This document shows, in pieces, positions 1-30,270 of a DNA stretch of 56,971 bases; position 1 is the first letter of the stretch; every line of letters begins with the position of its first letter. The notes beneath the pieces were generated by a model. That model saw nothing but the letters and a program-made list of their open reading frames with translations. It was not told the DNA's origin and searched no databases. The translations under genes and the position numbers were made by a program. This DNA comes from Candidatus Staskawiczbacteria bacterium (lineage in GTDB: Bacteria > Patescibacteriota > Minisyncoccia > Minisyncoccales > Staskawiczbacteraceae): the NCBI GenBank assembly GCA_026395215.1, contig JAPLZC010000010.1, forward strand, positions 206,150-263,120, given 5' to 3'.

Positions 1-1099
1 CGAGTCTAGGCGGGTCTTTAAACGTTCCATCCATTTTTACATGTTGGACAAATGGCAATTTTTCTTTTTTCCCAAGCTTCATATCATCTTCTCCAAATGC
101 CGGAGCTATATGCACAATCCCCGTTCCATCTTCTGTATTTACAAAATCTCCAACATAAACCTTCCCTTTTTTAATATAATAATCAAACAACGGCTCGTAT
201 TCTAACCCCGCCAACTCACTCCCTTCCATTTCCCCGACCAAATCCGCCTTTGGCGGAATTGTGACGGGCCCGTCAAAATGCCCTTCGGGGCTTTTGTCGG
301 GTTTCCCAAAAACCGCACTAAATCTATCCTTAGCTAAAATATAACTTTCATTACCAAATTTTACCTGAGCGTATTTTATTTTCTCTCCAACTGCCAAAGC
401 AACGTTTCCTGGCAAAGTCCATGGCGTGGTAGTCCAAGCCAAAAAGTAAACGTCACCCTGCAAACCTAATTTTTCTGGATTTTTTACTTTAAACTTCACA
501 GTGGCCGACAAGTCTTTTATATCCTTATATCCTTCGGCTACCTCTCCTTGGCTCAAAGTGGTTTCGCATCTTGGACAAATGTGCATAGACCTATAATCTT
601 CATAAATAAGCCCTTTCTTATGTAGCTCTTTAAATGCCCACCATTCTGCCTGCATGTACTCAAAATCCATTGTCCTATACGGATGCGCCATATCTGCCCA
701 TCGGCCAAAACGCGGAATTACTCTTTCCCACTCATTTATAAAAGTAAAAATTTTAGAACGGCAAAGGTCATTAAACTTTTTTACTCCCATTGCCATAATT
801 TCTTTCTTTGATTTTGTGCCAAGTTCTTTCTCAACAATATTTTCAATTGGAAGTCCATGACAATCCCAGCCCCACTGGCGAGGTACATTAAAACCTTGCA
901 TAGTTTTATAACGAGGGATTACATCTTTTATTGCGCTTTGCAACAAATGCCCATAATGTGGAGTTCCAGTTGCAAACGGCGGACCATCATAAAATACAAA
1001 AGATTTTCTCTTTTTATTTTTTTCCAAACTCTTCTCAAAAATCTTATTCTCCTCCCAAAACTTCAATATCTTCTCCTCCTCTTGTGGAAAATTAAACAT
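1..1099 (-). CDS. ileS: Isoleucine--tRNA ligase (IleRS2 type), N-terminal part, runs off the left edge
   Basis: Not in ORF track. Manual translation from ATG 1099: MFNFPQEEEKILKFW...FYDGPPFATGTPHYGH...GWDCHGLPIE, later WTTTPWTLPGN and GTGIVHIAPAFGEDD. Confidence 0.95.
   Translation of the reverse strand, partial: MFNFPQEEEKILKFWEENKIFEKSLEKNKKRKSFVFYDGPPFATGTPHYGHLLQSAIKDVIPRYKTMQGFNVPRQWGWDCHGLPIENIVEKELGTKSKKEIMAMGVKKFNDLCRSKIFTFINEWERVIPRFGRWADMAHPYRTMDFEYMQAEWWAFKELHKKGLIYEDYRSMHICPRCETTLSQGEVAEGYKDIKDLSATVKFKVKNPEKLGLQGDVYFLAWTTTPWTLPGNVALAVGEKIKYAQVKFGNESYILAKDRFSAVFGKPDKSPEGHFDGPVTIPPKADLVGEMEGSELAGLEYEPLFDYYIKKGKVYVGDFVNTEDGTGIVHIAPAFGEDDMKLGKKEKLPFVQHVKMDGTFKDPPRL
233..301. repeat. 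69-nt composite palindromic element inserted in frame in ileS
   Basis: CCCGAC...GTCGGG termini with internal hairpins; reverse complement nearly identical to 30052-30120; encodes PDKSPEGHFDGPVTIPPKADLVG. Confidence 0.9.
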
Positions 1100-1142
1100 G
1101 TTTTAATTTCTTATTGTTTTAACTATAAATATATTTTTTAAA

Positions 1143-1661
1143 TTACTTCCACCGACTGGGTAATAAATCTAAGCACTTTTTAAATACATTATTTGACACA
1201 AGATTACGATGGTTTCGCATAATATACGGCAAATTTCTTATACCAGCTCCTGGATAAATGCCAACAATTTTAGCATTTTTGTCAGCAATTGTAATAATTT
1301 TTTGTTTATTGATATCTATTCCCTCATTTCGTAATCCATAATCAAATACATCACCTATGGCCTTATATCCAGAAATCCAACCCCCAAGACATTCTACGAA
1401 ATAACCGCCTACGCCGCAATCAGATCCAATACACATGGTTTCATCACCAAGCGAGTAAACATAAAATTCAGATTCTTCGAATACTTTATCATAAGGGGGC
1501 GCCCATCCGGTTAAATCGCCTGCTTTTTCAGCGGCGGGCATTCCAAGTTTAATTGTTTTATATTGTTTAGTTCCGAATGGATATTTCTCCCACAAAACCG
1601 TACCCATGACTATAGATATTAGTATTATCGCTAAAAAAACAAATAAATAAAGTCTCTTCAT
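1143..1661 (-). CDS. Membrane-anchored hypothetical protein, possible immunity partner of the upstream gene
   Basis: 172 aa ORF with N-terminal hydrophobic helix; start overlaps upstream stop (TAATG). Confidence 0.7.
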   Translation of the reverse strand: MKRLYLFVFLAIILISIVMGTVLWEKYPFGTKQYKTIKLGMPAAEKAGDLTGWAPPYDKVFEESEFYVYSLGDETMCIGSDCGVGGYFVECLGGWISGYKAIGDVFDYGLRNEGIDINKQKIITIADKNAKIVGIYPGAGIRNLPYIMRNHRNLVSNNVFKKCLDLLPSRWK

Positions 1662-2632
1662 TAATCAACCACCTCAAGAACGCCGACGCTTATAGAGTCG
1701 CTTTTGCGCGCCTTGATCAGTGTATTATAAATTTCCGACCACAAAGTTTTCTCGATAATAGTAATACAACCAAGCGACCGACTACCTGTATGTAAATATC
1801 TTTCTCCAGTATGCCCAATTCTAAACCAAATTTTCGCTTTTGGTGCCAATTCTAAATATCTTAATCCTCCTAGATGAGGATAATCAGGAATTTCAATATC
1901 ATATAATCCTTTTTTCCATGGATTAGCGGGATAATCAGCAGCTTTATATTCCTTCCCGTTTAAAATAAATATTTTTTTAGAAATAGAATATTTTGCCAGT
2001 GCCTCCGACCCATATTCGGCAATGAAAATAAACTGCGAAGAACCATTCTCACGCAATACAATAGAAGCGCGTTCTCCACGATATGGACCCTCTAAAATCA
2101 TAAAATGCTCCCTCTTCCTATCGCTATTTTCTATTTTTACCCGCAGAAATGCAGGTAAGTTAATTTTTGATTTATCTTTTTCTAATACCACCTTGATCCA
2201 TCCATCCCCCCTATCTGGAACGCACCATATTGCATCTGATGCTTTTGCCTCAAAAATTATTTCAAAAACAGCATTAGCTTTTCCCCAAAATTTATCCATT
2301 ATTGAACGATTTTCTCTTACTTGAATTTCAAAACTGAATTGTTGCGATTTAGTAATAGTAGTGTTAACTTTTATATTAGTTTTTATACCACCGACATCAT
2401 TAAACAATAAATCTTTTTCAATAATGCTAATCGAAATTTCTGTTTGAAATAAATCTTGATCAGTTTCAAATCTACCAACTTCACGATTTATTTCCGCTGT
2501 TGTGCCAACCTTGATTCTTTTATCAACACGCAAAAATTTTCCGAGCACATCAATCTCCGCACGGATATCGTCGCCAATAGAATCACCATTATATTTTATT
2601 TTTAAAAGATTCAGTTGAATAGATTTAAGCAT
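1661..2632 (-). CDS. Hypothetical protein with C-terminal L,D-transpeptidase-like (DUF2778/Tlde1-like) domain
   Basis: Motif YLHTGSRSLGCIT (HxGxxSxGC), preceded by PWKKGLY and followed by terminal GVLEV. Confidence 0.6.
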   Translation of the reverse strand: MLKSIQLNLLKIKYNGDSIGDDIRAEIDVLGKFLRVDKRIKVGTTAEINREVGRFETDQDLFQTEISISIIEKDLLFNDVGGIKTNIKVNTTITKSQQFSFEIQVRENRSIMDKFWGKANAVFEIIFEAKASDAIWCVPDRGDGWIKVVLEKDKSKINLPAFLRVKIENSDRKREHFMILEGPYRGERASIVLRENGSSQFIFIAEYGSEALAKYSISKKIFILNGKEYKAADYPANPWKKGLYDIEIPDYPHLGGLRYLELAPKAKIWFRIGHTGERYLHTGSRSLGCITIIEKTLWSEIYNTLIKARKSDSISVGVLEVVD

Positions 2633-2667
2633 GGAATTTTAATAAAATATTGTTTTTGTCTAAATGT

Positions 2668-2925
2668 TTAATTATAAATAGAATGGCCACCTATAGCATG
2701 GAATATGACAGTCTTTCCGCTTTTAAATTCAAAAACTATTCTACAATCATAATCAACGGAAAATGCCCACAAATCCCGAAACCTACCGCTTAATTTATGA
2801 GTTTTTAGGCGACCATCGAAGGGATTATTACGAAAAATATTTTCTCTCATCTCTGCTTTTATTTTCAACTGCTCGTTGATTTTCTCATAATCGCCTTCAA
2901 ATCTCGGAGAATAAATAATTTGCAT
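2668..2925 (-). CDS. Type II toxin, RelE/YafQ-like mRNA interferase
   Basis: 85 aa, LKTHKLSG...AFSVDYDCRIVF...IGGHSIY; directly downstream of an RHH gene. Confidence 0.85.
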   Translation of the reverse strand: MQIIYSPRFEGDYEKINEQLKIKAEMRENIFRNNPFDGRLKTHKLSGRFRDLWAFSVDYDCRIVFEFKSGKTVIFHAIGGHSIYN

Positions 2926-2932
2926 AACACAA

Positions 2933-3151
2933 TTATCTTAGATCTTTTAATGACCTAAGAATTTTTCCTTTGCCTTGTTCTATCTGCTTTTGGCTTATTT
3001 TTACCCTTTTCAACAAATCCTCCTCTTCCATCTTTTCCCTAATAAGCTCCCTTACAAACTCACTTTTGCTTGAATACTTTCCCTTTTTTATCGCCTTGTC
3101 TAAATCAAAAACAAGTTCTTTCGGCAATGATATGTTAATAACTGAGCGCAT
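2933..3151 (-). CDS. Ribbon-helix-helix (CopG family) antitoxin
   Basis: VINISLPKEL...YSSKSEFVRELIRE; 7 nt upstream of the toxin. Confidence 0.85.
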   Translation of the reverse strand: MRSVINISLPKELVFDLDKAIKKGKYSSKSEFVRELIREKMEEEDLLKRVKISQKQIEQGKGKILRSLKDLR

Positions 3152-3234
3152 GGGTTTTATTTTTTAATTATATAGTGTAACACATTGTATTACACATTTA
3201 TCTTATTATTTAAACGCCCCGCTGTCAATATCTA

Positions 3235-3828: not shown

Positions 3829-3833
3829 AAAGA

Positions 3834-5537
3834 TTACATTTTTTCTAGCGTTTTAATCCCAAGCAACCACATACCGTTTTTCATAACAATAGTAAAAGCT
3901 TTGGTTAACGCTAGTTTATATGGTGAATATTTGTCTGTTTTATCAACTATCTTATTCTCGGCGTAATAAGTATTAAAAATTGCAGCCAACTCTGTCAAAT
4001 AAAGTGAGATAAAGTGAGGTTCGTATGCTTGACCTGCCTTTAAAACTATCTCCTGGAAACGACATATAATTTTTTCTAATTCAGTAATTTCATTTGGAAT
4101 GTTTTTGAATGAAGGCTTTATTTTTTCTGCTTTAGCTTTTCTTAGAACAGACTGCGCCCTTGTGTATGCATATTGCAAATACGGCCCAGAATCTCCTTCA
4201 AATGAAATAGATCTATCAAAATCAAAAATAATATCATGCCCAATTGATTGTTTCAAAATTGAATATTTTATAGCTCCAATTGCAACATTTTCTATGATTT
4301 CTTTTTTCTCTGTTTCTGATAATTCTCTGTCTTTAATTTTCTCTTTCACCAGCTCTTCAACTTTTCTTATCAAGGATTCTCCCGTAATAACCTTTCCTGT
4401 GCGCGAAGACATTTTCCCCTCTGGCAAACGTAACATTCCATGTCCAATGTGTTTTGTTTTCTCCGCCAGTTTTGGAGCCACCTGGCCCATTGCGCAAAGC
4501 ATAACTTTGAAATAATCATTTACTTCATTACCGGTTATAACTACCGATTGGTCATACTTATATTTATTATATTTTACTTCAGCCAATCCTAAATCTTTTG
4601 CCTCATAAGTCGGCAATCCTTCAGAGTTTATAAAAACCCTTGTGTGTAAACCCTGCCCGTCCGGCAGGCGGGCATATTTTTCACCCTTAAAAATAACCGC
4701 GTCGTTATCACCTTTCTCAAATATCCCGTCTTCCAAACCCTTCTCAACAATCTTTTTCCCAATTGGACCAGTTTGACTTTCAAAAATTAACTCATCAAAC
4801 TTTGTGCCAAGTTGTTTATAAATTCTATCGAAATACTTTAAACTCTCTTTTTTCCCTTGGTCATATAGTTTATTTATATCCTTGTCGTTTCTGGCGTATA
4901 TTTTTTTATTCAAATCCATTATTTCCTTCTTTACATTTTCGTCGTCCTCAAACATTTGCGCTCCGTAAGCATAAGCTGCTCCCCATCCTAAATTTTTTGC
5001 ACCATTAATTTTTCCCCAAATAGCTTTTGCAACGTGCATCCCAACGTCTCCTTGATAACAAACCCGTTTTACCTTGGCTCCTTGTACCTCAAAAATACGT
5101 GATAGCGATTCGCCAATTGCATTGCTCATTAAATGCCCTATGTGAAAGTCCTTAAAAGGATTCGGGTCTGTATAATCTATTATTACTTTTTTATTTTTTA
5201 ACTCCCCCCCTTTGCCGTAGCTTTTATCTATATTCTTTAAATTATCAACAAAAACTTTATCTGAAATAAAAAAATTTATAAATCCTGGACCGGCTATTTC
5301 TATTTTTGAAAATAACTTATTCTCGCCAATTTTTTGTTTTATTGAATCAGCTACTTCTCTTGCCTGCCTGCCGGCAGGCAGGGATTCTTTTCCCAGTTTT
5401 TTAGAGAGAACCAAAGCGACATTGGTTGAATAATCACCATGCATTTTGTCGTCTGGTATATCAACTGAAAATCCTTCGGGTACTTCCCCAAAATCCTTAA
5501 CTGCTTTCTCAATTATTTTTTTTATTTCTTCTTTCAT
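3834..5537 (-). CDS. argS: Arginine--tRNA ligase
   Basis: HGDYSTN, GPGFINF, PNPFKDFHIGH, KMSSRTG, GDSGPYLQY, terminal EKM. Confidence 0.97.
   Translation of the reverse strand: MKEEIKKIIEKAVKDFGEVPEGFSVDIPDDKMHGDYSTNVALVLSKKLGKESLPAGRQAREVADSIKQKIGENKLFSKIEIAGPGFINFFISDKVFVDNLKNIDKSYGKGGELKNKKVIIDYTDPNPFKDFHIGHLMSNAIGESLSRIFEVQGAKVKRVCYQGDVGMHVAKAIWGKINGAKNLGWGAAYAYGAQMFEDDENVKKEIMDLNKKIYARNDKDINKLYDQGKKESLKYFDRIYKQLGTKFDELIFESQTGPIGKKIVEKGLEDGIFEKGDNDAVIFKGEKYARLPDGQGLHTRVFINSEGLPTYEAKDLGLAEVKYNKYKYDQSVVITGNEVNDYFKVMLCAMGQVAPKLAEKTKHIGHGMLRLPEGKMSSRTGKVITGESLIRKVEELVKEKIKDRELSETEKKEIIENVAIGAIKYSILKQSIGHDIIFDFDRSISFEGDSGPYLQYAYTRAQSVLRKAKAEKIKPSFKNIPNEITELEKIICRFQEIVLKAGQAYEPHFISLYLTELAAIFNTYYAENKIVDKTDKYSPYKLALTKAFTIVMKNGMWLLGIKTLEKM
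4652..4672. repeat. Short palindromic element (LPAGRQ family variant) in frame in argS
   Basis: CCTGCCCGTCCGGCAGGCGGG, adds ARLPDGQ. Confidence 0.8.
5363..5382. repeat. Perfect 20-nt palindrome in frame in argS
   Basis: CCTGCCTGCCGGCAGGCAGG, identical at 6230 and 18053; encodes SLPAGRQA. Confidence 0.95.
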
Positions 5538-5540
5538 TTT

Positions 5541-5993: not shown

Positions 5994-6692
5994 TTATTTA
6001 ATGGTTGTGCCGATGAATGGTTTATTATTTAAAAAGTCTTCAAGATATTCTAATTTTTTTCCGTTAAGCATTATAACCTTTAATTTCAACTTTGCTGCCA
6101 GTTTGGTGGCTATTGGGTCAAATGGCTTGTTAGCTCCAGGGCTCCACTTATCTCCCACAATTTTCTGAAAATGGTCCCAGCTGACTTCTTTCAATGGCGT
6201 TGCATTTTCAAAATTAGATGGGATTTTTACCTGCCTGCCGGCAGGCAGGTCATACACATAATCAATATTTGTTAAATTAATTATTGTTTTTGCGCCATGA
6301 TTTTTTGCAATTAACACCGCATCGTAATCTGTTGACCACCCCGGTTTCCAGCCGGCTCCCACAACAACATCTTTGCTAGTTTTTACTTTTTTTGTAGGGT
6401 CTGTAATAATTTTTGAGTAAGATCTATCGCCAAATAACTGCCTTACAACTTCTGCATTTAGCCTTGTAACATTTATTCCAATCCAATCCCTATCACTGCT
6501 CTTAGCCCCAAATTCCAAAATAGCCTTCTGATACATCCTGGCCACCTTCCCTCCCCCCACTATTATAAAAAACTTATTCTGCCCAAACCGTTTCTGCAAA
6601 ATCTGTTTAAAGCTTTTCAAAAACCCCAAGTCTATCTCCCCCGGTGCCACCAACGATCCCCCCAATGAAATTATAATAGTCTCTTTTTTCAT
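5994..6692 (-). CDS. pyrH: UMP kinase (archaeal-type)
   Basis: ISLGGS, VGGGKVAR, PGWSTDYDA, TNIDYVYD, PFDPIA; start refined to ATG 6692. Confidence 0.92.
   Translation of the reverse strand: MKKETIIISLGGSLVAPGEIDLGFLKSFKQILQKRFGQNKFFIIVGGGKVARMYQKAILEFGAKSSDRDWIGINVTRLNAEVVRQLFGDRSYSKIITDPTKKVKTSKDVVVGAGWKPGWSTDYDAVLIAKNHGAKTIINLTNIDYVYDLPAGRQVKIPSNFENATPLKEVSWDHFQKIVGDKWSPGANKPFDPIATKLAAKLKLKVIMLNGKKLEYLEDFLNNKPFIGTTIK
6230..6249. repeat. Perfect 20-nt palindrome in frame in pyrH
   Basis: CCTGCCTGCCGGCAGGCAGG; encodes DLPAGRQV. Confidence 0.95.
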
Positions 6693-7548: not shown

Positions 7549-7899
7549 GGGAGTGACTGTTTTGATGGATAGTTCTTTAAAGTAAGGCAAGTTGAGCTTC
7601 CTTGGGGCTCATTAATCTTCCGAGGAAAAACATAATTGCTAATTTATTTAACTTTAATAAGCAACCAGCTTTAGCTTACGCTTAGGCTGCATCTTCGCCA
7701 TCAACTCCTGATAGATGGGTCGAAGGTGTTATATATCAGGATAGATAACTCCCTTCTCTGAGGAGTTATCAAAACTAAAGAGATAAAGTATCAAAAATTT
7801 TGTTAATTCTTTATTTGATACTCGAAAAACAGAATTAAATAAACTTGTAGAATTGCTTTTAAGAGTTTTCCAGACGCGAGTTCAATCTCGCCACTTCCA
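7549..7899 (+). ncRNA. ssrA: tmRNA; tag peptide ANLFNFNKQPALAYA (7638-7685)
   Basis: Acceptor stem GGGAGTG/CACTTCC-A with G3.U wobble; T-arm GCGAG-TTCAAT-CTCGC; tag ORF ending ALAYA*; directly after smpB. CCA not encoded. Confidence 0.93.
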
Positions 7900-7923
7900 C
7901 AATATAAACCTAAGATAAATAAC

Positions 7924-8430
7924 ATCGACAAAGTATTAATAAACAATTTCATAAGGGCTAAAGAAGTTAGAGTTATTTCTGAAACAGGCGAACAGCTTGG
8001 AGTTATGAATATTTTCCAAGCAATAGATTTAGCAAAATCAAAGGGTTTAGATTTAATTCAAGTTACAGAAAAAGTTGAGCCACCAGTTTGTAAAATTGCC
8101 AACCACGGAAAATTCCTTTACCAGCAACAGAAAAAAGAAAAGAAAATGGCTAAACCAAAGGGTGGAGAGCTAAAAGAGATAAGACTAACCTTTGGTATCT
8201 CCCCTCACGATATGGAGGTAAGAGCAAACCAAGCCAAAAAATTCCTTGATGATGGAGATAAAGTAAAGATAAACATGGCTTTAAGGGGTAGAGAGAAAGC
8301 AATGGGACAATTTGCCACAGATAAAGTAAAAATATTTTTAGAAAATTTAAATAAGTTAATACCAATTAAAACTGAAAGAGAGTTAAAGCGTGAACCCAGA
8401 GGTTTCACAATGATAGTCAGCAAATCATAA
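7924..8430 (+). CDS. infC: Translation initiation factor IF-3 with non-canonical start (ATC 7924 or ATA 7915)
   Basis: Frame extends upstream of track ATG as DKVLINNFIRAKEVRVISETGEQLGVM, the conserved IF3 N-terminus; infC-rpmI-rplT order. Confidence 0.92.
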   Translation: MDKVLINNFIRAKEVRVISETGEQLGVMNIFQAIDLAKSKGLDLIQVTEKVEPPVCKIANHGKFLYQQQKKEKKMAKPKGGELKEIRLTFGISPHDMEVRANQAKKFLDDGDKVKINMALRGREKAMGQFATDKVKIFLENLNKLIPIKTERELKREPRGFTMIVSKS

Positions 8431-8524
8431 CACTAATATACTAATTTTATTCTAATCTACAGAAACACTAATCTACAAATTCGCATTTTCGCAGATTAGC
8501 ATAAGATTCGCAGATTAGTATTAT
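8431..8524. repeat. Inverted array CTAATCTAC x2 / GCAGATTAG x2 between infC and rpmI
   Basis: Units at 8452, 8468 and inverted at 8491, 8510; right arm 39/45 identical to 35731-35775. Confidence 0.88.
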
Positions 8525-8530
8525 ATTTAT

Positions 8531-8719
8531 ATGAATAAAACAAAAAAAGCGTTAGTAAAAAGATTTAGAGTGACAAAGAACGGTAAAATTCTGAGAAGAG
8601 CAACCGGTCAGAACCACTATAGATCTAAAAAAACGGGTGAACAAAAGAGAAAAGGTCGCAAATGGATCACCCTTTCAAAAAAAGAAGCTGGTAGAATTAA
8701 AAAGTTTTTAACAAAGTAA
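8531..8719 (+). CDS. rpmI: 50S ribosomal protein L35
   Basis: KTKKALVKRFRVTKNGKI...GQNH; position. Confidence 0.93.
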   Translation: MNKTKKALVKRFRVTKNGKILRRATGQNHYRSKKTGEQKRKGRKWITLSKKEAGRIKKFLTK

Positions 8720-8790: not shown

Positions 8791-9138
8791 ATGTCAAGAG
8801 TAAAAAGAGCAGTACAAGCCAGAAAGCACAGGAAAAACATACTAAAACATGCTAAAGGTTTTTCATACGGAAGAAAAACACATTTTAAGTTGGCCAAAGA
8901 TGCATTAAGACATGCATGGACTTATGCATACAGAGACAGAAAAACAAAAAAGAGATTGTCCAGGAATCTTTGGAATATACAAATAAACGCATTAGCCAGA
9001 CAAAACGGAATTACTTACAGCAGGTTAATTGACGGGCTTAAAAAACACAAGATAGAGTTAGACAGAAAAGTTTTGTCCGTATTAGCAAACGAATATCCAG
9101 AAGTATTCATAAAGGTAGTTGAAGAAGTCAAAAAGTAG
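8791..9138 (+). CDS. rplT: 50S ribosomal protein L20
   Basis: MSRVKR...AKGF...YAYRDRK...LDRKVLS. Confidence 0.97.
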   Translation: MSRVKRAVQARKHRKNILKHAKGFSYGRKTHFKLAKDALRHAWTYAYRDRKTKKRLSRNLWNIQINALARQNGITYSRLIDGLKKHKIELDRKVLSVLANEYPEVFIKVVEEVKK

Positions 9139-9142
9139 ACAT

Positions 9143-9173
9143 AAAAAAACACTCCCCTATTGGGAGTGTTTTT
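9143..9173. terminator. Bidirectional terminator between rplT and NUDIX gene
   Basis: AAAAACACTCCC-CTATT-GGGAGTGTTTTT. Confidence 0.85.
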
Positions 9174-9176
9174 AGT

Positions 9177-9665
9177 TTATTTTATATTCGTAACAAAGTC
9201 ATTCGCCTCTTTCAACAATTTCTTAGAATTTTTGAACGTTGTCCTTTTAATTGCCTCATCAATTGGAAGCCATAAAAATCCTTTGTGCTCGTGGGAAATT
9301 TCTACTGCCTTAGTTTTTGTCTCTGCAACAAAAAAGGTAACTAATTTAAAAATCCACCCGCCTAAAGCTTCAACATTATGGCGGGCAGGCTCCGACTTGC
9401 CCGTCAAATTGCCCAACAGGGCTTTTGTCGGGTATTGCTTAAAAAAGTATTTCGCATATTTTTTGAATCCCGGCAAAATTTTAATATCCTTTATCCCGGT
9501 TTCCTCACCCACCTCCCTCCTTGCGGCGTCTTCCTCACTTTCTTTACCTTCAATATGCCCCTTAGGAAATTCCCAATGCCCAGAAGGGTAATGCAAAAGG
9601 AGGTAATAAGTTTTATCACCATCTTTTCTAAAAATTATAGCTCCCGCTGATTTCTCTCTTGGCAT
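9177..9665 (-). CDS. NUDIX hydrolase (Ap4A hydrolase-like) with repeat-derived insert
   Basis: Nudix box GHIEGKESEEDAARREVGEETGI; SAGAIIF, ISHEH. Confidence 0.9.
   Translation of the reverse strand: MPREKSAGAIIFRKDGDKTYYLLLHYPSGHWEFPKGHIEGKESEEDAARREVGEETGIKDIKILPGFKKYAKYFFKQYPTKALLGNLTGKSEPARHNVEALGGWIFKLVTFFVAETKTKAVEISHEHKGFLWLPIDEAIKRTTFKNSKKLLKEANDFVTNIK
9357..9432. repeat. Two adjacent palindromic elements in frame in NUDIX gene
   Basis: CCCGCC...GGCGGG (9357-9385) and CCCGTCAAATTGCCCAACAGGGCTTTTGTCGGG (9400-9432), the latter the same unit as half of the ileS element. Confidence 0.85.
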
Positions 9666-13888: not shown

Positions 13889-14865
13889 ATTTTATCTAAA
13901 ATTATTCCTCCCTGATAATTTAATTTATATATTTTTTTATCTTGTACAGTAATTTCTTCTACACCGGAAAAGTCGTCAATGCTTCCCTTACCTTGGTCAG
14001 AATATTTATATTCTCTTTTTTCATATTCACAAGATTTTCCAAGCCGACATTTTTCAGCTAACCTAAACAATGATTCCCTTAAAAAACCAGCTTCCAATCT
14101 TCCAATTTGATCTCCCATATAATTCATACCCCAAATTGGTCTTAACTCCTGATAAATAATTTCTTGCCCGATAAACTTTTTATTCCCATTAAAAAAAATG
14201 TCGCGATAAAAATAATCTCCTTTTTGGAATTCTAATTGTTTAGAAGCTAAAAGACGTGGGTTGTCTAACGAGTTAGCATTAGCAGCAAAAGTACTTTTGC
14301 GGGCTTCACACAGAAAATTTACCAAGCTCTCCAAGTTTATATTGCTTTTATCTGTATAATCAATTTCCTTAAAAGTGAATTTACCTCCGCTTTCAAGCGC
14401 GCTCATCATTAATTTACCCAATTCTTTTGTTTCTACTATATATTTTGAATATTTATCTTTCTTTTTAATATCCAATGGAGCCTGAAATCTCAATAACTTT
14501 TTGCCTTCCTGAGACTCTACAACCTCCGCAATATCCCTAAACTGTAATGATGGCACTAACCAAATATAATCATTAATTTTTTGTAAAACCTCATCAAAGT
14601 AAACAAAAAGCAAATAAAAGTTTTTTTCCGCTTTGAAACTTTCCTGCAAAAAATCCTTTACAAAAATGCCTTTCTTCATGGGCTTAAAAGTGCTACCAAT
14701 AAGGAAATACATTTCTTTCTCTTTGTATTCCCCTCTTCTTTCCACAGCCAAATAGTCTTCTAGCCCCTTCTTCTCCGGCTTAAAAACAACCAGCCTGCCT
14801 CCGGTGCTTAAAGCAATTACATCAATAATTTTATCTTCAATTTCCTCTTGTATATTCTCAACCAT
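13885..14865 (-). CDS. Hypothetical protein with C-terminal DUF5680-like domain
   Basis: FLCEARKSTFA...YFYRDIFF...FIGQEII...WGMNYMG...F.G.EEI...Y.GG pattern. Confidence 0.6.
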   Translation of the reverse strand: MVENIQEEIEDKIIDVIALSTGGRLVVFKPEKKGLEDYLAVERRGEYKEKEMYFLIGSTFKPMKKGIFVKDFLQESFKAEKNFYLLFVYFDEVLQKINDYIWLVPSLQFRDIAEVVESQEGKKLLRFQAPLDIKKKDKYSKYIVETKELGKLMMSALESGGKFTFKEIDYTDKSNINLESLVNFLCEARKSTFAANANSLDNPRLLASKQLEFQKGDYFYRDIFFNGNKKFIGQEIIYQELRPIWGMNYMGDQIGRLEAGFLRESLFRLAEKCRLGKSCEYEKREYKYSDQGKGSIDDFSGVEEITVQDKKIYKLNYQGGIILDKI

Positions 14866-14866
14866 T

Positions 14867-15205
14867 TTAAATTTTATACACTTTATATCCCTCGTGAACT
14901 TTTTCTTCTATTTTCATACCAACGTCATCTCCTTTTTTAGCTACTTTAACCTCTTTGTGGTCAATTTGCATAGATTTAACCTTTTGCTCAAAATCTGTTT
15001 CTTGGCCACCAATTATTCTAATATCATCTCCAATCTTCAAAGGTGATAAAAGATTAATAACCACCACCTCTATATTAGAAAAATAATGGGTTATTCTCCC
15101 TATTAATTTTCCTTCTATTGCGGCTTTTACCGGGCTTGCTTTTTTTACAACTTTTTTGACTACCTTTTTTGCTACTTTTTTAACTGTTTTTTTCTTTGTT
15201 GCCAT
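14867..15205 (-). CDS. Small translation-factor-like beta-barrel protein with Lys-rich N-terminus
   Basis: IGRITHYFSNIEV...LKIGDDIRIIG...FEQKVKSMQIDH...GDDVGMK. Confidence 0.75.
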   Translation of the reverse strand: MATKKKTVKKVAKKVVKKVVKKASPVKAAIEGKLIGRITHYFSNIEVVVINLLSPLKIGDDIRIIGGQETDFEQKVKSMQIDHKEVKVAKKGDDVGMKIEEKVHEGYKVYKI

Positions 15206-15213
15206 GTTTCTTG

Positions 15214-15242
15214 CCCGCCTAATTGCTTTAGCTTTTGGCGGG
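15214..15242. repeat. 29-nt palindromic element just upstream of a start codon
   Basis: Reverse complement CCCGCCAAAAGCTAAAGCAATTAGGCGGG resembles 37231-37259. Confidence 0.8.
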
Positions 15243-15279
15243 TTATATTAATTATATATAACTCTTACCTTACTCTAAC

Positions 15280-15308
15280 AAAAAAACCATTGCTTTTCAA
15301 CAATAGTT
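15280..15308 (-). terminator. Intrinsic terminator of candidate 6S-like RNA
   Basis: AACTATTGTT-GAAA-AGCAATGGTT followed by T-run. Confidence 0.7.
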
Positions 15309-15315
15309 CCTTTAA

Positions 15316-15450
15316 GGGGGAGAGTGAATATTTTGCAACGAAATTGGTTTTTCTCGAGTCTAACTTCGGACAACGAAGCTAAATATATATTTTTCCTACT
15401 TCGATACAAGCTATTTTTGTCCTTAGGGATAAACCCCGTACCCTCCCCAT
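15316..15450 (-). ncRNA. Candidate 6S-like RNA
   Basis: Own promoter and terminator; no plausible ORF; ends pair (GGGGAGGGT/ACTCTCCCC) and the rest folds by eye into a rod with central bubble. Confidence 0.55.
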
Positions 15451-15457
15451 AACTGTA

Positions 15458-15521
15458 ATTCTATCTTTTAATACCCAAATGTCAATTGCTTGTTGACAAA
15501 TTTATATTTTAAAAATAGAAT
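15458..15521. promoter_or_regulatory. Back-to-back sigma70 promoters
   Basis: Minus: TTGACA (15480-15485)-16-TAGAAT (15458-15463). Plus: TTGACA (15493-15498)-17-TAGAAT (15516-15521). Confidence 0.85.
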
Positions 15522-15527
15522 TAAATC

Positions 15528-15780
15528 AACGTAGCAAACGCTGTGGAGACACAGCCAAACAACAAGGAGATACGGGTCAGCAGATGATGAAGACGACAAA
15601 GACGACGGCAACGATCATCGCGCGATGAACACCGGGAACCGGGGGCGCCTGCCATGAAAGGGGTGGGCGCCCCCACCAGTGCTCTTTAACAATTTACAGG
15701 TTCTGACCCTCTGGTCAGAAGAAACTGCTCAGTGATGAGCGCAACAAAAAAGCAGGACACATGTCTCTGCTTCTTTTTTT
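15528..15780 (+). ncRNA. Candidate structured small RNA with 14-codon ORF and boxA
   Basis: Consensus promoter; hairpins at 15540-15555, 15641-15674, 15701-15720, 15727-15740; TGCTCTTTAACA at 15680-15691; terminator 15746-15780. Confidence 0.55.
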
Positions 15781-16957: not shown

Positions 16958-18166
16958 TTATCTATTTTTTAATGCGTCTCGGGCGATTTGGCGATCGTCC
17001 CACGGAATTTTTTTGCCGTTTTCCAAACACATCCAGGGCTCTGACCCCTTTCCAGTAATTACAACAACCTCCCCAGGTTGCGCAAGTTTTATTGCAGTAT
17101 TTATTGCTTCTTTTCTATCTAATATTATTTGGGCTTTAGGACCAGCTGTTTTAGCAACCTCATTTATAATTTCCATTGGCTCTTCATCATACGGATCTTC
17201 ATTGGTGATTATAATTTCTTTACAATATTTTCCTGCCAGTTCTCCCAACACCGGCCTTTTCCATTTATCTCTCCCGCCCCCGCAAGACCCCAAAACACAA
17301 ACCATATTTTCATCCTTAAAAGTTTTATAAACGGCTTCAAGTTGTTCTGGGGTGTGCGCATAATCTACAACAACCTTTATGGGAGTTTCGGCCACAATTT
17401 CCATTCTACCTGGAATACCGGGATACCCTTTGGGTCTTTTTTCCAGTGCCCTTTTGCTTACTGTGTCGTCAATCCCATAAGCTCTGGCAACAGAAATTGC
17501 AGCCATTGCGTTCATTAAGTTAAACTCTCCCTCCATATTTAATTTAATTCCAGCGTCTTTGGCATCTTCCATACAAAATTCTACTATTTTGTTTGCGGGA
17601 ATATCCAAAAAGTATTTTGCATTTTGGTCATCTGCGTTTATAACGTGTATATTTTTTGTCACTTTAAAAAGTTTGAGTTTTTCGTTTCTATAATTTTCAA
17701 AACCTCCATGGCTTTCAATGTGCTCGGGAGTTAGGTTTGTAAAAACAGCGCAATCAAAATTTATAAACTTGTGCCTAAATTGTCTAATTCCCTCTGATGT
17801 CACTTCTAAAACAACATATTTACAACCTGCCCTTCTCGCCTGTGCTAAAAATTTCTGAATCACAAAACGCCCGGGCATTGTCATCTTATACTTGTTCTCC
17901 CACTCTTTATTGGCAACTTTAAATCTTATTGAAGAAAGCGAAGCAACTTTTTCTCCTTTCTCTTCTAAAATTCTTGTAATAAAATCTGTAGTTGTTGATT
18001 TCCCGCTGGTTCCCGTAACCCCAATTATTTTCATGTTTTTGTTATGGAAAACCCTGCCTGCCGGCAGGCAGGCAAAAAACACAGCCCCAATTAAAGCCCA
18101 ACAAAAATGATAGCCTCTCAACAGAAATTTCGGTATAAATTTTTTAATTATTTCTTTAAAAGTCAT
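16958..18166 (-). CDS. murE: UDP-N-acetylmuramoyl-tripeptide synthetase (MurE-like)
   Basis: GVTGTSGKSTT, LEVTS, FTNLTPEH, GRME, VDYAHTP, GGGRD, EDPYDE, GKG.E. Confidence 0.9.
   Translation of the reverse strand: MTFKEIIKKFIPKFLLRGYHFCWALIGAVFFACLPAGRVFHNKNMKIIGVTGTSGKSTTTDFITRILEEKGEKVASLSSIRFKVANKEWENKYKMTMPGRFVIQKFLAQARRAGCKYVVLEVTSEGIRQFRHKFINFDCAVFTNLTPEHIESHGGFENYRNEKLKLFKVTKNIHVINADDQNAKYFLDIPANKIVEFCMEDAKDAGIKLNMEGEFNLMNAMAAISVARAYGIDDTVSKRALEKRPKGYPGIPGRMEIVAETPIKVVVDYAHTPEQLEAVYKTFKDENMVCVLGSCGGGRDKWKRPVLGELAGKYCKEIIITNEDPYDEEPMEIINEVAKTAGPKAQIILDRKEAINTAIKLAQPGEVVVITGKGSEPWMCLENGKKIPWDDRQIARDALKNR
18053..18072. repeat. Perfect 20-nt palindrome in frame in murE
   Basis: CCTGCCTGCCGGCAGGCAGG; encodes ACLPAGR. 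Confidence 0.95.
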
Positions 18167-24958: not shown

Positions 24959-25115
24959 GTTTGTCTCCTGTTTTTCTTACTACTCGGTTAGGTAGTCAAT
25001 AATGACAAAGAACGAAACGGTAGAGCAAACTACCACCTATAATATAACACGTGTTTACTACTATTGCAAAAAAAACTATTATCTGGTATTATATGTTTAT
25101 ATAAATTATATAACT

Positions 25116-25379: not shown

Positions 25380-25396
25380 GGCAAACCTAGATTTTT

Positions 25397-26332: not shown

Positions 26333-27225
26333 TATAATTTTTGACAATTAGGGCAAAGGAAAGCGCTTCGCCCTCCAAAATGTATTCTTTTTATTTTAGT
26401 ACCACAACGGCTACATTTTTGCCCCTCTCTATTATATGCCCTTCTCTCAGAGTCAAAATCTCCCTTAGTTCCATCGGGTTTTCTATAATCTGAAAAACTT
26501 TCTCCGCCCAATTTAACGGCCGTCTCTAAAACTTTTTTTATATTCTGATAAATCAACTTTAACTCTTTTTCGTTTAATTTTGCAACACTTTTTTCCGGAT
26601 GAATTTTTGACTGCCATAATATTTCTGAAGAATAAATATTCCCAATGCCAGCAATTACTTCGGGCTTCATTAAAACCTGTTTAACCTTACCATTTTTATC
26701 TTTTAATATTTCTTTAAACTTTTCAAAAGTAAAAGATTTTTCCAAGGGCTCTGGCCCCAATTTATCCAGCTCTTTTTTCAGTTCTTCTGTCTTCCACAAT
26801 TCAACCTTTGCAAATTTCCTTGCATCAGACAGCGCCAGCATTTTTTTATTATCAAGAAAAAATACTAAGTGTAAAAATCTATTATACGGGTCATTCAACG
26901 GGCTTTTTTTATCTATTGGTTTCCAGTCACCATTTACTAGTTGCCAGTTACCCACTAACAAGTGCCCGGTCATTTTTTGGTGGACCAAAAGAGAGTGCCC
27001 TTCAGATAAATCAAAAATTATATTCTTGGCTCTGCGCCAAATTTTTTCTATTTTTTTATTTTTTATTTCTTTTTTAAATGCATCAAAATTTTTAGCCTGC
27101 CCGCCGGGTAGGCGGGGTTTCTTAACAATCTTGCTCCAGTCAGACCAAACATCAACAAAGGTGCTTTTAAGCACCTTTTTATTTAACCCATCTACGGTTG
27201 TTTGAACTTCAGGAAGCTCTGGCAT
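26332..27225 (-). CDS. mutM: Formamidopyrimidine-DNA glycosylase
   Basis: MPELPEV, RRAK, KMTG, GIGNIY, C-terminal CxxC...CPNCQ zinc finger. Confidence 0.97.
   Translation of the reverse strand: MPELPEVQTTVDGLNKKVLKSTFVDVWSDWSKIVKKPRLPGGQAKNFDAFKKEIKNKKIEKIWRRAKNIIFDLSEGHSLLVHQKMTGHLLVGNWQLVNGDWKPIDKKSPLNDPYNRFLHLVFFLDNKKMLALSDARKFAKVELWKTEELKKELDKLGPEPLEKSFTFEKFKEILKDKNGKVKQVLMKPEVIAGIGNIYSSEILWQSKIHPEKSVAKLNEKELKLIYQNIKKVLETAVKLGGESFSDYRKPDGTKGDFDSERRAYNREGQKCSRCGTKIKRIHFGGRSAFLCPNCQKL
26919..26960. repeat. Degenerate heptamer array inside mutM
   Basis: GTTTCCA GTCACCA TTTACTA GTTGCCA GTTACCC ACTAACA; encodes LVGNWQLVNGDWK. Confidence 0.6.
27096..27116. repeat. Short palindromic element (LPAGRQ family variant) in frame in mutM
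   Basis: CCTGCCCGCCGGGTAGGCGGG; adds RLPGGQA. Confidence 0.8.
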
Positions 27226-27718
27226 CTTGCTTTTTACTTTTTAATTCTTCCTCCAATTCATTAACTCTTTTGACCAACCTTTCTGCCTCTATTGTCCTAT
27301 TCCTCACTTTTTGCTCCAAAGCGTCAATTGTTTCCTCTAAAACCTGTGTTTTGGCTCTTACTTTTATATCCACTGACTTATCCATATCCCTCTCCTGCTC
27401 CTGACTTATTTTTAACTCCTCCGCTATTTTATTAAAGGTAGATGCCAATTCTGAAAGTTCATCTTTTGTTTCTAAAAAAACTTGACTTGATATATCTCCG
27501 TTGCTCAATTCTTTAGCTCTGTCTAATAATTTTTTGATGGGTGAAGAAAAATTTTGTCCCACTGCCAGTCCGAAAAAAAATATAAAAATAACAAGAAGCA
27601 AAAAAACAATGTAAAAACTACTGTTTAACTGTTCATAATTAAGAGCTATAAAAATAGCTATTGTGAAAAATCCGACTAAAATTATTGGAACAGTTATTTT
27701 TGTTATAAGCTTGGACAT
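27209..27718 (-). CDS. Two-TM HAMP-domain protein without output domain
   Basis: SPIKKLLDRAKELSNGD...DELSELASTFNKIA followed by coiled coil only. Confidence 0.8.
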   Translation of the reverse strand: MSKLITKITVPIILVGFFTIAIFIALNYEQLNSSFYIVFLLLVIFIFFFGLAVGQNFSSPIKKLLDRAKELSNGDISSQVFLETKDELSELASTFNKIAEELKISQEQERDMDKSVDIKVRAKTQVLEETIDALEQKVRNRTIEAERLVKRVNELEEELKSKKQDARAS

Positions 27719-28587
27719 AATGGTAAACGATTTATAAGACTGTTAAATTCTAATTTTTTAAAAATTTCTTCCACTTTGTTTTTGTCATAACCTCCAAATT
27801 TGCAATCATCCAAAATAAAATTTACATCTACATCACTTTTCATTTGTGCCAAGTCTCGTGACATTAAAGCAGATTCTTTATTCTTCTTTAACATTTCTTT
27901 TACCTTTGGCTTTAAAACTGCTGTGTCTGTGGCAAGCTCATCATAAAGATTTTTTATCCTGCCATATTGCCCAATTATTTCAGCTGCTGTTTTTTTGCCA
28001 ATTCCTTCAACTCCCGGAATATTATCGGAAGCATCTCCCGTAAGAGCCTTATAATCCACCATTTGCTCTGGTTTTACTCCAAACCGCTCTACTACTTTAT
28101 TTATATCATAAATTACCGTATCTTTGATACCCTTGCCCAAAGTATAAACTTTTATATTTTCATTGACCAACTGAGTATTATCCATGTCACCTGAAACTAT
28201 ATATATTTCGGTATTTGGAGTTTTTGCGCAGATAGTAGCAATCAAATCATCTGCTTCAACTCCTTCTTTTGCAAAAACTGGAATTTTAAAAGCTTCAAGA
28301 ACTTCTTTGGTAACAGGTATCTGCGAAACAATTCCCGATGGCGTTACCGGTCTTTGTGCCTTATAATCTTTATACATCTCATGCCTAAATGTAGGCATTT
28401 TTGTATCAAAACAAGCCACAACATAGTCAGCCTTCAAATCATTTATTGCTTTAAACAAAGTCAGCAAAAATCCATAAACCGCCCCAGTCTCCTGCCCCGT
28501 CTTTGTCATTAAAGGTGGCAACGCATGAAACGCCCTATGCAACAACGCATTAGAATCAATAATAATTAATCTCTTTTTATTTTCCAT
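27703..28587 (-). CDS. Stand-alone 5'-3' exonuclease (PolA N-terminal domain)
   Basis: IDSNALLHRAFHA, YKAQR, EADDLIAT, SGDMD, GDASDNIPGVEGIGKKTA; ends at 294 aa. Confidence 0.92.
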   Translation of the reverse strand: MENKKRLIIIDSNALLHRAFHALPPLMTKTGQETGAVYGFLLTLFKAINDLKADYVVACFDTKMPTFRHEMYKDYKAQRPVTPSGIVSQIPVTKEVLEAFKIPVFAKEGVEADDLIATICAKTPNTEIYIVSGDMDNTQLVNENIKVYTLGKGIKDTVIYDINKVVERFGVKPEQMVDYKALTGDASDNIPGVEGIGKKTAAEIIGQYGRIKNLYDELATDTAVLKPKVKEMLKKNKESALMSRDLAQMKSDVDVNFILDDCKFGGYDKNKVEEIFKKLEFNSLINRLPLCPSL

Positions 28588-28671
28588 TCCTTATCTTATC
28601 ACATTTTTCACCCAAAAAAAATAACCCCGCTTTACGAGAATATTTTTTTGTTTACAGCACTTAATGCCTAT

Positions 28672-28953
28672 TTAACAACTACCAGAAATCTTAGGGATAT
28701 ATATTATCAATAACAAAAAAATAACAGAAAATATCAAAAATATATATTTACTAAACCTTAATGGTCTTTCAACTTTTAAAAACAGACTCATGCAATTTAA
28801 TATGAAAAACGCAAAACCTGAAAGTGCCCAAATTATCACCGCAAAATCCATATTGACGACATGCGTGGAACAAAAATCCAAAGAAAACAAAACAACTATT
28901 ACTACCGAGACAATTAAAATTAGTAAATTATAAATAAAAGTTTTCTTGTTCAT
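28672..28953 (-). CDS. Small membrane protein (3 TM)
   Basis: 93 aa hydrophobic ORF. Confidence 0.6.
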   Translation of the reverse strand: MNKKTFIYNLLILIVSVVIVVLFSLDFCSTHVVNMDFAVIIWALSGFAFFILNCMSLFLKVERPLRFSKYIFLIFSVIFLLLIIYIPKISGSC

Positions 28954-28976
28954 TATTATAATTATATTTTACTCTT

Positions 28977-29432
28977 CTAAAAATCCCTGTCAAATTTAAT
29001 TTTGCGAGTTTTGTCGTCAATAAATTTAAAATCTATTTTGATGATATTTTTGGGGAGAACTTTTTTAATACGTTCGGGCCATTCTATTGCAATAATATTT
29101 CTGGCGTCTTTTAAAATATCTTTTAATCCCAATTCAGCAGCATCTTTTTCATCTTTTAGCCGGTAACAATCAATGTGATAAAAATCTTTGAATCTAAAGC
29201 CCGGCACTTCAAATCTTTTCTGTATAACAAAAGTTGGGCTTAATATTTTATCTTTTATGCCAAGACCTTTTGCAAATCCCTGCAAAAAAGTTGTCTTGCC
29301 TCCCCCTAAATTTCCGAACAAAGCCAAAACAACTGCTCCTTTTTGAGGCACGGTTGCCAAAATCTCTTCGGCTAAATTTTCGCCAAGCTTTTGGGTTTGT
29401 TTTGCGCTGGTTGTGATGTATTTTTTATCCAC
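28977..29432 (-). CDS. tsaE: tRNA t6A biosynthesis ATPase
   Basis: GNLGGGKTT, SPTF, HIDCYRL, IEWPE. Confidence 0.95.
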   Translation of the reverse strand: MDKKYITTSAKQTQKLGENLAEEILATVPQKGAVVLALFGNLGGGKTTFLQGFAKGLGIKDKILSPTFVIQKRFEVPGFRFKDFYHIDCYRLKDEKDAAELGLKDILKDARNIIAIEWPERIKKVLPKNIIKIDFKFIDDKTRKIKFDRDF

Positions 29433-29479
29433 AGATTTTGTTTGACTTATTTTTTGAATTCGTTTAGGGTATTATAATC

Positions 29480-29499
29480 CCCGCCTGCTAGCGGGCAGG
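29480..29499. repeat. LPAGRQ-family palindrome, intergenic
   Basis: CCCGCCTGCTAGCGGGCAGG, 9 nt upstream of ATG 29509. Confidence 0.8.
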
Positions 29500-29508
29500 T
29501 ATAAAAAT

Positions 29509-30270
29509 ATGGAAAACCAAGAAACAAAAAATTTAATAGACAATTCTAAAAATATTTATTTGATTACTTCGCAGGAGCCAGAGGCAATAACCTCTACACT
29601 GGCTCTTTTTTATACTTTAAAAGATTTAGGCAAAAATGTAAACCTTATTATTGAATCTCTGCCTGAAAATTTAAAATTTTTATCTCCATCTTTAGATTTT
29701 ATTTCTTATCCTAAAAACTTTGTAGTTTCTATCCCAACCAAAGTAGCTCAAATATCGCAAATTCATTACGAAAAAAAAGACGAAGCTTTTAAAATACATT
29801 TAACCTTAGAGGGCGGATCTATAAAAAAAGATAATATTTCATTTTATTTTCAGGAAGCTAAGCCAGACCTAATAATAACAGTTGGCGTAGAAGACTACCA
29901 AAAAGAATTATCGGAAAAGTTAAATTATTTTGGCTTTTTACTGGATTCTCCAGTTGTGGATATCGACAACAAGCAAAATAACAAAAAATTTGGTAAAATA
30001 AACTTAATAGGAGAAGGTTCGATGTCGGAGGTTATTTATAACCTAATAAAACCCGACAAAAGCCCCGAAGGGCATTTAGACGGGCCCGTCACAATCCCCG
30101 CAATGCGGGGTTTGGTCGGGGAGACTGCCCAATGCCTTTTGACGGGCCTAGTTATATACACTGAAAATTTTAAAAATAAACTTTCTGCTGATGTTTTCCA
30201 ACTTGCTTCAGATTTAATGAAAAAAGGGGCCAGCTTAGAAGAAATAGTAAAAAATATTTACAGTAAATAA
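29509..30270 (+). CDS. Degenerate DHH-family (NrnA-like) protein
   Basis: DHH-like layout (ALFYTLKDLGKNV, PDLIITVG, AQCLLTGL) but DIDNK where DHH is expected. Confidence 0.65.
   Translation: MENQETKNLIDNSKNIYLITSQEPEAITSTLALFYTLKDLGKNVNLIIESLPENLKFLSPSLDFISYPKNFVVSIPTKVAQISQIHYEKKDEAFKIHLTLEGGSIKKDNISFYFQEAKPDLIITVGVEDYQKELSEKLNYFGFLLDSPVVDIDNKQNNKKFGKINLIGEGSMSEVIYNLIKPDKSPEGHLDGPVTIPAMRGLVGETAQCLLTGLVIYTENFKNKLSADVFQLASDLMKKGASLEEIVKNIYSK
30052..30120. repeat. 69-nt composite palindromic element in frame
   Basis: Encodes PDKSPEGHLDGPVTIPAMRGLVG; paralog of the ileS insert. Confidence 0.9.

Follow-up and report, generated by a model that had tools for sequence, protein, structure and literature searches.

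The window analysed here is a stretch of 56,971 nucleotides from a Candidatus Staskawiczbacteria bacterium (C15:206150-263120 of genome G000, which comprises 771,534 bp in 15 contigs), and its subject is a short, GC-rich palindromic element that lies inside two unrelated protein genes and recurs elsewhere in the window and the genome. At one edge lies the 5' part of ileS (2..1099, minus strand), which encodes residues 1-366 of isoleucyl-tRNA synthetase (IleRS) and continues beyond the window. A second element-bearing gene (29509..30270, plus strand) encodes a DHH-like protein of 253 aa, and a third (9177..9665, minus strand) encodes a NUDIX hydrolase and bears two single units. Of these two names, both given in an initial annotation of the stretch, that of the NUDIX hydrolase is solid (PF00293, 63.8 bits) and that of the DHH-like protein is weak (PF01368, 19.6 bits against a cut-off of 28.1).

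The copies in ileS (233-301, minus strand) and in the DHH-like gene (30052-30120, plus strand) had been described initially as equal in length and read in the same frame, and both points held. Each is 69 nt long, 61 of the 69 positions are identical, and a repeat finder returned the two as the longest inverted pair in the window, with 74-nt arms that are 89% complementary. In-phase translation gives PDKSPEGHFDGPVTIPPKADLVG in open reading frame (ORF) 2..1099(-), the IleRS N-terminus, and PDKSPEGHLDGPVTIPAMRGLVG in ORF 29509..30270(+), with identical residues at 18 of 23 positions. The inserts form residues 267-289 of IleRS, in the CP1 editing domain, and residues 182-204 of the DHH-like protein.

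Each 69-nt copy is a dimer of two imperfect hairpins placed back to back, as first proposed. Folding as DNA gave -23.3 kcal/mol for the ileS dimer and -21.1 kcal/mol for the DHH-like dimer (z -5.4 and -4.5), which none of 200 shuffles matched, and the GC content of the dimers is 61-64%, versus 36% for the window. Units were scored with a covariance model (CM) built from an alignment of 24 units in one orientation. The ileS dimer consists of unit A (269..301, minus strand; 33 nt; CCCGACAAAAG, inner stem-loop, CATTTTGACGGG; CM 49.2 bits, E 8.5e-10) and unit B, of the inverted B*-type (233..268, minus strand; 36 nt; CCCGACCAAAT..AATTGTGACGGG on the plus strand; CM 43.6 bits). The DHH-like dimer likewise consists of unit A (30052..30084, plus strand; 33 nt; CM 48 bits) and unit B (30085..30120, plus strand; 36 nt; CM 44.6 bits). 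The two dimers differ at eight positions, seven of them in the inner stem-loop of unit B, where pairing is nevertheless retained, the inner stem reading TCCGCC/GGCGGA in one dimer and CCCCGC/GCGGGG in the other.

Four single units listed in the initial annotation were recovered by pattern and CM searches. The NUDIX gene contains an A unit at 9400..9432 (minus strand; 33 nt; pattern and CM), which has a CAAG tail and is read in a different frame (PTKALLGNLTG), and a C-type unit at 9357..9385 (plus strand; CCCGCC..GGCGGG; CM 32.9 bits, E 2.9e-5), whose outer stem is fully paired. The other two lie just 5' of start codons: a C-type unit at 15214..15242 (minus strand; pattern and CM) is 8 nt from the start codon of the co-directional ORF 14867..15205(-), and an A-type unit at 37231..37259 (plus strand; CCTGAC..GACGGG; CM 40.7 bits) is 12 nt from that of ORF 37272..38126(+), which encodes a Bro-N domain protein. 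The pattern used originally gave three matches in the window against 0.00 expected, and a more tolerant pattern gave 27 matches in the genome against 0-1 in each of five shuffles. Near positions 28000-31000 (approximate), genes shift from a minus-strand majority to a plus-strand majority, and the minimum of the cumulative GC skew is close by; this is possibly the replication origin region, and the family units flanking it point away from it, like the genes there.

Across the genome, the family comprises about 24 units at 18 loci and takes two forms, singles of 28-36 nt and head-to-head dimers of 66-69 nt. Alignment of the 24 units revealed (near-)invariant outer arms, CCCG-(A/C)-C-(A/C)-AAA-(G/T) ... 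(C/A)-ATT-(T/G)-(T/A)-G-(A/G)-CGGG, a conserved A.A mismatch (the C-type subfamily has a C-G pair instead), one bulged base, and an inner stem-loop that is nearly free in sequence yet paired. In this alignment 83.5% of cells were paired, versus 34-51% with the partner slid, and double changes were seen at six pairs. The covariation score was 0.253, versus 0.078 in shuffles, and none of 500 shuffles attained it. The data show that the family exists and that its fold is conserved by covariation, so that the early remark on conserved arms and inner stems that differ yet still pair holds for the family as a whole. The arms fall into subtypes A (..ACAAAAG / CATTTTG..) and B* (..ACCAAAG / CATTGTG..). 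In the six or seven dimers of the genome the order is invariably A then inverted B*, with GACGGG joined to CCCGTC at zero spacer, and dimer flanks are usually AAA on the 5' side and GA(A/G) on the 3' side. Singles are followed on their 3' side by CAAG, CAGG or CAAA, a CARG-like tail.

Nine of the 18 loci lie inside protein genes and one lies in an RNA gene, and in-frame copies occur in nine proteins. Dimers are present in IleRS, the DHH-like protein, a TrxB-like oxidoreductase (PDKSQGHFDGPATMPAEPALGG) and FtsZ, and an A unit with a decayed B in a membrane-anchored SNase-like nuclease. NUDIX carries its two singles in other frames, and one single each is found in an MnmA-like, a GatC-like and a CCA-adding-like enzyme, the last two named from N-terminal sequence alone. 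The FtsZ dimer (C12:65109) lies in a Lys-rich N-terminal tail and is read in frame 1 as NPTKGRKGILTGPSQSRRRRVWSG; since this N-terminal extension is conserved in the genus, the dimer was counted as coding and not as leader. The tail varies in length across the genus, and the unit peptide is present in none of the orthologs. No in-gene copy contains a stop, and each leaves the frame downstream of it in phase. The proposal of a structure-conserving dispersed family lying in frame in essential genes was thus borne out for IleRS, FtsZ and the TrxB-like, MnmA-like, GatC-like and CCA-adding-like proteins.

In the RNA gene, the unit at C15:60105-60133 constitutes helix P3 of RNase P RNA (RF00010, 105.8 bits). 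Four singles lie 8-12 nt 5' of start codons in the same direction as the gene, each followed by CAAG or CAAA. Of the 681 genes of at least 100 aa in the genome, just 67 have a Shine-Dalgarno-like 4-mer in the 20 nt before the start. A/T-rich words dominate the upstream regions, and a promoter consensus scan at the 5' units gave weak sites only, 30 and ~70 nt upstream, for which no promoter is claimed.

One dimer (C13:12083-12150) precedes a small GIY-YIG gene and lies within a tRNA-like 5' fragment. This dimer and several copies in other genomes have D-arm-like flanks; an interrupted functional tRNA was considered and rejected, as in-silico removal of the element yielded no tRNA with ARAGORN. 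The tRNA-like flanks are 5' tRNA-like fragments with an intact tRNA or a small GIY-YIG gene as neighbour. Small GIY-YIG genes number five in G000 and are interspersed with tRNA genes; among them are those at C15:53439-54050, C7:11363-11581, C14:11105-11317 and C13:12165-12377. At least two GIY-YIG genes are preceded by a tRNA 5' fragment (acceptor strand plus D-arm) with a palindrome in its D-loop, namely, at C13, the family dimer and, at C14, a CCTGGCCGGGCAGG hairpin, and the same layout was seen in another genome (L129). A GIY-YIG nuclease was rejected as the mobiliser, a unit lying beside just one of the five small GIY-YIG genes of G000.

Four of the six reading frames of the dimer are stop-free, and four of the five in-gene dimers of the genome use sense frame 0, starting on the first C. 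Of 65 A-headed copies examined at 75 loci of other genomes, 22 lie in long open frames (16 in sense frame 0, six in other frames) and 43 are without a long frame. These copies are related and their flanks short, which makes the preference a trend and not a test. The peptide of the favoured frame, PDKSP(E/K)GHFDGPA.IS..ASLGG (16 of the 22 in-ORF copies), is hydrophilic and rich in Pro and Gly, and the FtsZ tail, itself basic, uses a frame whose peptide is basic too. The element acts at the DNA level and not as a peptide, since several frames are used (frame 1 in FtsZ, others in NUDIX) and copies also lie between genes and in an RNA gene.

Two of the inserts were compared with structures, as suggested initially. 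In an AlphaFold model of the DHH-like protein (22-row alignment, mean predicted local distance difference test (pLDDT) score 76), insert residues 185-199 score below pLDDT 50 and form a coil that separates helices 172-180 and 204-217. When IleRS is aligned with the T. thermophilus enzyme (1ILE), the insert occupies a gap that lies inside the region covered by the editing-domain structures 1WK8 and 1UE0. The initial annotation had stated that the element remodels essential proteins: its copies are indeed in frame in essential genes, whereas remodelling would be a further inference, and the sole modelled insert, a low-confidence coil, fits a tolerated passenger better than a new function.

Alignment to orthologs revealed empty alleles at the ileS, DHH-like and NUDIX sites, where the initial annotation had proposed looking for them, and also in RNase P RNA. 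The insert was missing from 12 of 13 same-genus IleRS orthologs. In G002, ileS has unit A with the same left junction (..TTTGGGAAA followed by CCCGAC..) and then a weak second unit (28 bits). In an IleRS tree made by a quick method, G000 fell in an open polytomy and was not paired with G002, and the two ileS inserts may represent either one old insertion or two hits at one site. For the DHH-like protein, 23 of 24 same-genus orthologs were without the insert. The ortholog of G034 (L066) has an unrelated long palindrome, with arms CCCCCACACCAAACGAGA / TCTCGTTCTGGTGTGGGGG, in frame in the same loop, and in G006 and G014 the gene ends exactly at the insert point, without the C-terminal helices. 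Neither unit was present in any of 22 same-genus NUDIX orthologs, and all 22 relatives have a short, AT-rich RNase P RNA P3 of 17-20 nt, versus the 29-nt unit in G000. The net gain was 16 residues in IleRS for a 23-residue insert, and 10 residues in NUDIX for ~62-66 nt of units. The idea of a mobile element is therefore upheld as far as presence and absence between species and empty ortholog sites go, but no excision or new insertion was observed.

The CM detected the family in 16 of 26 genus genomes and gave zero matches in the other ten. Matches were uneven, numbering 25 in G000 (both strands), 12 in G002, 11 each in G010 and G034, and 10 in G016. An exact-pattern scan of one genome per species for 185,579 species returned 47 stretches, including the ileS copy of G002, most of them dimers flanked by AAA and GA. 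By record title, 17 belong to Candidatus Staskawiczbacteria, 10 to 'Patescibacteria group', 8 to Saccharibacteria, 4 to Gammaproteobacteria and 8 to others, and none of the records is titled Rickettsia. The four Gammaproteobacteria titles are third-party labels of metagenome-assembled genomes, and the tRNA contexts of these stretches resemble those of the Candidate Phyla Radiation (CPR). The family occurs almost only in Staskawiczbacteria-like CPR genomes. Carriage by phages was rejected, as 2.9 million viral contigs contained zero family matches.

In independent metagenome assemblies, the summed contig depth over the element at place 289 was 349-1008, versus ~6-16 in the next depth bin. Near-identical units occupy many other contexts in those communities, because many contigs match solely 233-306 or 15209-15244 and diverge on both sides exactly at those edges. 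In three other samples, contigs identical to the window span the NUDIX units (at 9008-9653) and the unit at 15214 (14854-15525, 14808-15578). One RNA-library contig from another locus contains 47 nt of the element, which is not proof of transcription here.

No transposase lies within the window, as the initial annotation had stated, but the genome carries three RAYT-like HUH genes elsewhere (RAYT, transposase associated with repetitive extragenic palindromes (REPs)). These encode 243-aa Y1_Tnp paralogs (48.6, 33.6 and 31 bits; cut-off 23) at C15:135971-136702 (minus strand), C13:46980-47708 (plus strand) and C5:31844-32575 (minus strand) (loci L021-L023). In NCBIfam they match the REP-associated tyrosine transposase model best, with scores under its cut-off, and the HUH motif and the Y...N tyrosine are intact. 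Each gene has a GC hairpin of its own at either side, the classic RAYT layout, and these hairpins are not of the family studied here. The C15 gene has a copy of its own hairpin inside the coding sequence (C15:136482-136506), and the C13 gene adjoins a duplicated start of the downstream gene. In the genus, RAYT-like genes are present in 13 of 26 genomes. Among the strong hairpins flanking 80 metagenomic RAYT-like genes, 94 of 133 have a YCCGD/HCGGR centre, versus 18% of GC-rich control 10-mers. The commonest centres contain ACGGG and CCCGT, which are 5-mers within GACGGG and CCCGTC, the unit-end hexamers that form the junction between A and B. This shared motif is one positive lead, suggesting that RAYT-like proteins may recognise and mobilise CCCG(A/T)C ends in trans, a possibility that we rate at well under an even chance.

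In all probability, the element represents a selfish, non-autonomous palindromic repeat family of the REP kind, or of the kind of the Rickettsia palindromic elements (RPEs), in a Staskawiczbacteria-like CPR bacterium. Copies would spread to new sites and survive only where they are harmless, namely in variable surface loops, in disordered protein tails, in an RNase P RNA helix for which any hairpin suffices, and in short leaders 5' of start codons. Within proteins, persistence would be mostly in the sense frame that gives the loop-friendly PDKSPEGHFDGP..., and always at a frame-keeping length. As to the engine, the hairpin might be cut and joined in trans, as single-stranded DNA, by one of the clade's RAYT-like HUH tyrosine nucleases that would recognise its CCCG(A/T)C ends. 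Such mobilisation is the single most likely engine, proposed here tentatively.

Several observations weigh against this reading or its engine. About 24 units is a low copy number for REPs. No target-site duplication was found at any copy in G000, the 5' flanks being rich in A and the 3' flanks reading GAR or CARG, with no direct repeats. No precise-excision joint was found at any unit in the contigs of four sequencing runs, and contigs from three other DNA samples retain the units where they cover them. The search, suggested initially, for a RAYT or HUH gene flanked by family units came up empty at all 108 RAYT-like loci: none of 28 in the genus was flanked in CM searches with filters off, one unit lying ~1 kb away, and none of 80 metagenomic loci had family units in its 600-nt flanks. 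Genome G016 has 10 unit matches and lacks a RAYT-like gene, and such a gene is present in 10 of 16 unit-bearing genomes versus 3 of 10 without units. Translation of the inserts by read-through is deduced from open frames alone; it is a simpler reading than ribosomal skipping, since every in-gene copy is open and in phase, and nothing points to translational bypass of the byp type. The A/C-type copies are co-oriented with the local gene in 12 of 13 cases, and this co-orientation, with the fixed distance before start codons, could reflect host function and not selfish spread. Finally, every resolved site is a replacement of native sequence and not a clean insertion: ~21 nt of native bases are missing in ileS, ~36 nt in NUDIX, and the entire native P3 in RNase P RNA. 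Such replacement is not what a simple cut-and-paste model predicts.

The replacements point to a second way in which the same element could have spread, without a transposase, by template switching of stalled forks at hairpins or by short-patch gene conversion, either of which would overwrite a native loop or hairpin. This is the second most likely engine because it explains the replacements, and we regard it as possible but doubtful. It would account for resolved sites that are all replacements without target duplication, for the native RNase P RNA hairpin exchanged exactly for a unit, and for the unrelated palindrome in the DHH-like loop of G034; and it sits well with a family that flanks no RAYT-like gene and is present in G016 in the absence of one. 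On the other hand, the protein target sites show no evident prior hairpin or unit homology, and native residues may just as well have been lost by later deletion in loops of variable length. The conserved mismatch, the bulge, the CARG tail and the CCCG(A/T)C ends, moreover, resemble features recognised by proteins. A stronger version is unlikely: that the element is not a cut-and-paste transposon at all but a hairpin overwriting pre-existing loops and hairpins by template switching, some copies having been recruited by the host as 5'-leader hairpins on mRNAs without a Shine-Dalgarno sequence. If true, an overwriting hairpin could rewrite RNase P P3, the D-loop of a pseudo-tRNA and protein surface loops alike.

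Also improbable, to a similar degree, is a functional motif selected by the host, for example a stabilising 5' mRNA stem-loop or a binding site for a host protein, with the in-gene copies as by-products. The four gene-directed singles 8-12 nt before start codons, with their CAAG/CAAA tails, would fit such a motif, as would the co-orientation of 12 of the 13 A/C-type copies, the covariation that keeps the fold, and the copy that serves as helix P3. However, orthologous sites in relatives are without the unit, so no site requires one, and 10 of the 26 genus genomes lack any match. The copies in coding loops have no evident regulatory position, and no Rfam family matches.

Protein-level selection on the 23-residue peptide as a functional module is very improbable. 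The recurrent frame speaks for it, as four of the five G000 dimers and 16 of the 22 copies in other genomes give PDKSP.GHFDGP..., but the same DNA in other frames (FtsZ, NUDIX), between genes and in an RNA gene largely refutes a module; copy differences keep base pairing yet alter 5 of the 23 residues, and the modelled insert is disordered while orthologs manage without it. An assembly or binning artefact with repeat-induced chimeras can be dismissed almost entirely, for although repeats can mislead assemblers and contigs of other runs break at the element edges, the other-sample contigs over the NUDIX and 15214 units show no differences, frames are open through every in-gene copy, and the same ileS junction recurs in the independent genome G002.

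Other repeats and RNA features were noted in the window and the genome. A second GC-rich palindrome family, CCTGCCTGCCGGCAGGCAGG, is present at 5363-5391, 6230-6258, 18053-18081 and 29480-29508 of the window, with at least nine more copies in the genome. Additional doublet families in the genome pair CGCCCAGTG..CACTGGGCG with GCCAGGTG..CACCTGGC, and CACCCGGTC..GACCGGGTG with TGCCCCGTC..GACGGGGCA. Two AT-rich intergenic stretches of ~110 nt, 8422-8533 and 35681-35784, are 80-85% alike and internally palindromic, and each lies 5' of a plus-strand gene. A transfer-messenger RNA (tmRNA) gene lies at 7549-7902 on the plus strand (RF00023, 116.6 bits) and explains the high contig depth and the RNA contigs there. 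At gathering score, the tmRNA was the sole window match in Rfam 15, and no RNA family matched the element.

In architecture, the family is closest to REPs and to doublets of inverted REPs (REPINs). REP singles have a GTAG tail, RAYT genes are flanked by their own REP, and units number in the tens to hundreds and are mostly extragenic. REPs, bacterial interspersed mosaic elements (BIMEs) and REPINs are reportedly associated with RAYT (TnpA-REP) HUH transposases in Proteobacteria, in work said to go back to Nunvar in 2010 and to Bertels and Rainey in 2011. Like these, the Staskawiczbacteria element is a short, imperfect, GC-rich palindrome with a conserved mismatch and bulge, forms inverted doublets and has a tail beside singles (CARG here), and the same genome has RAYT-like genes with flanking hairpins. 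Unlike them, it flanks none of the 108 RAYT-like loci, numbers ~24 units and not hundreds, is about half intragenic, and has a dimer without spacer. The family also shares with MITEs (miniature transposable elements with inverted repeats) its small size, non-autonomy, palindromic form and some in-frame fusions, but it lacks the target-site duplication of MITEs and so is not strictly one of them, and the whole element is a hairpin and not terminal repeats around a core.

Yeast mitochondria contain GC-rich palindromic clusters, and their byp elements break the reading frame and are skipped by the ribosome. Coding palindromes also occur in the mitochondria of Nematomorpha, according to the available text of PMC6649704. 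The Staskawiczbacteria element resembles both in that GC-rich hairpins invade the coding sequence of an AT-rich, reduced genome, and differs from byp in that every in-gene copy keeps an open, in-phase frame. In behaviour it is closest to RPEs (Ogata et al. 2000), which the available text of PMC10969869 describes as elements of ~150 bp that lie in frame within housekeeping genes unrelated to one another, in a reduced genome, with a conserved family peptide, at sites tolerated by the fold, and transposase-free. As far as that text goes, the two have in common in-frame, peptide-encoding palindromes spread over unrelated housekeeping genes in a reduced genome, and they differ in size, RPEs measuring 100-150 bp and the present element, with singles of 28-36 nt and dimers of 66-69 nt, being 2-5 times smaller. 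It also differs in being found in CPR and not in Alphaproteobacteria, in its modular single and dimer forms, in its hypervariable but paired inner stem, and in its RNase P P3 copy; the likeness drawn here is one of behaviour.

In papers available without a subscription, a literature search turned up nothing on palindromic elements or RAYT in CPR, Patescibacteria or Staskawiczbacteria. In-frame selfish palindromes have hitherto been a curiosity of Rickettsia and a few other bacteria, and are now joined by a much smaller, modular hairpin in CPR. CPR genomes are among the most streamlined known, and the element is present there in IleRS, FtsZ, thioredoxin-reductase-like and tRNA-modification genes and RNase P RNA. 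For annotation and phylogenomics of CPR, this means spurious 'conserved' peptides common to unrelated proteins, and indels in marker genes. The match of the unit ends to the loop motif of the clade's RAYT-associated hairpins provides a concrete biochemical hypothesis. The copies constitute a natural map of places that accept 10-23 extra residues in essential proteins, or a foreign helix in a ribozyme, and bear on how reduced genomes tolerate, and perhaps recruit, selfish DNA.

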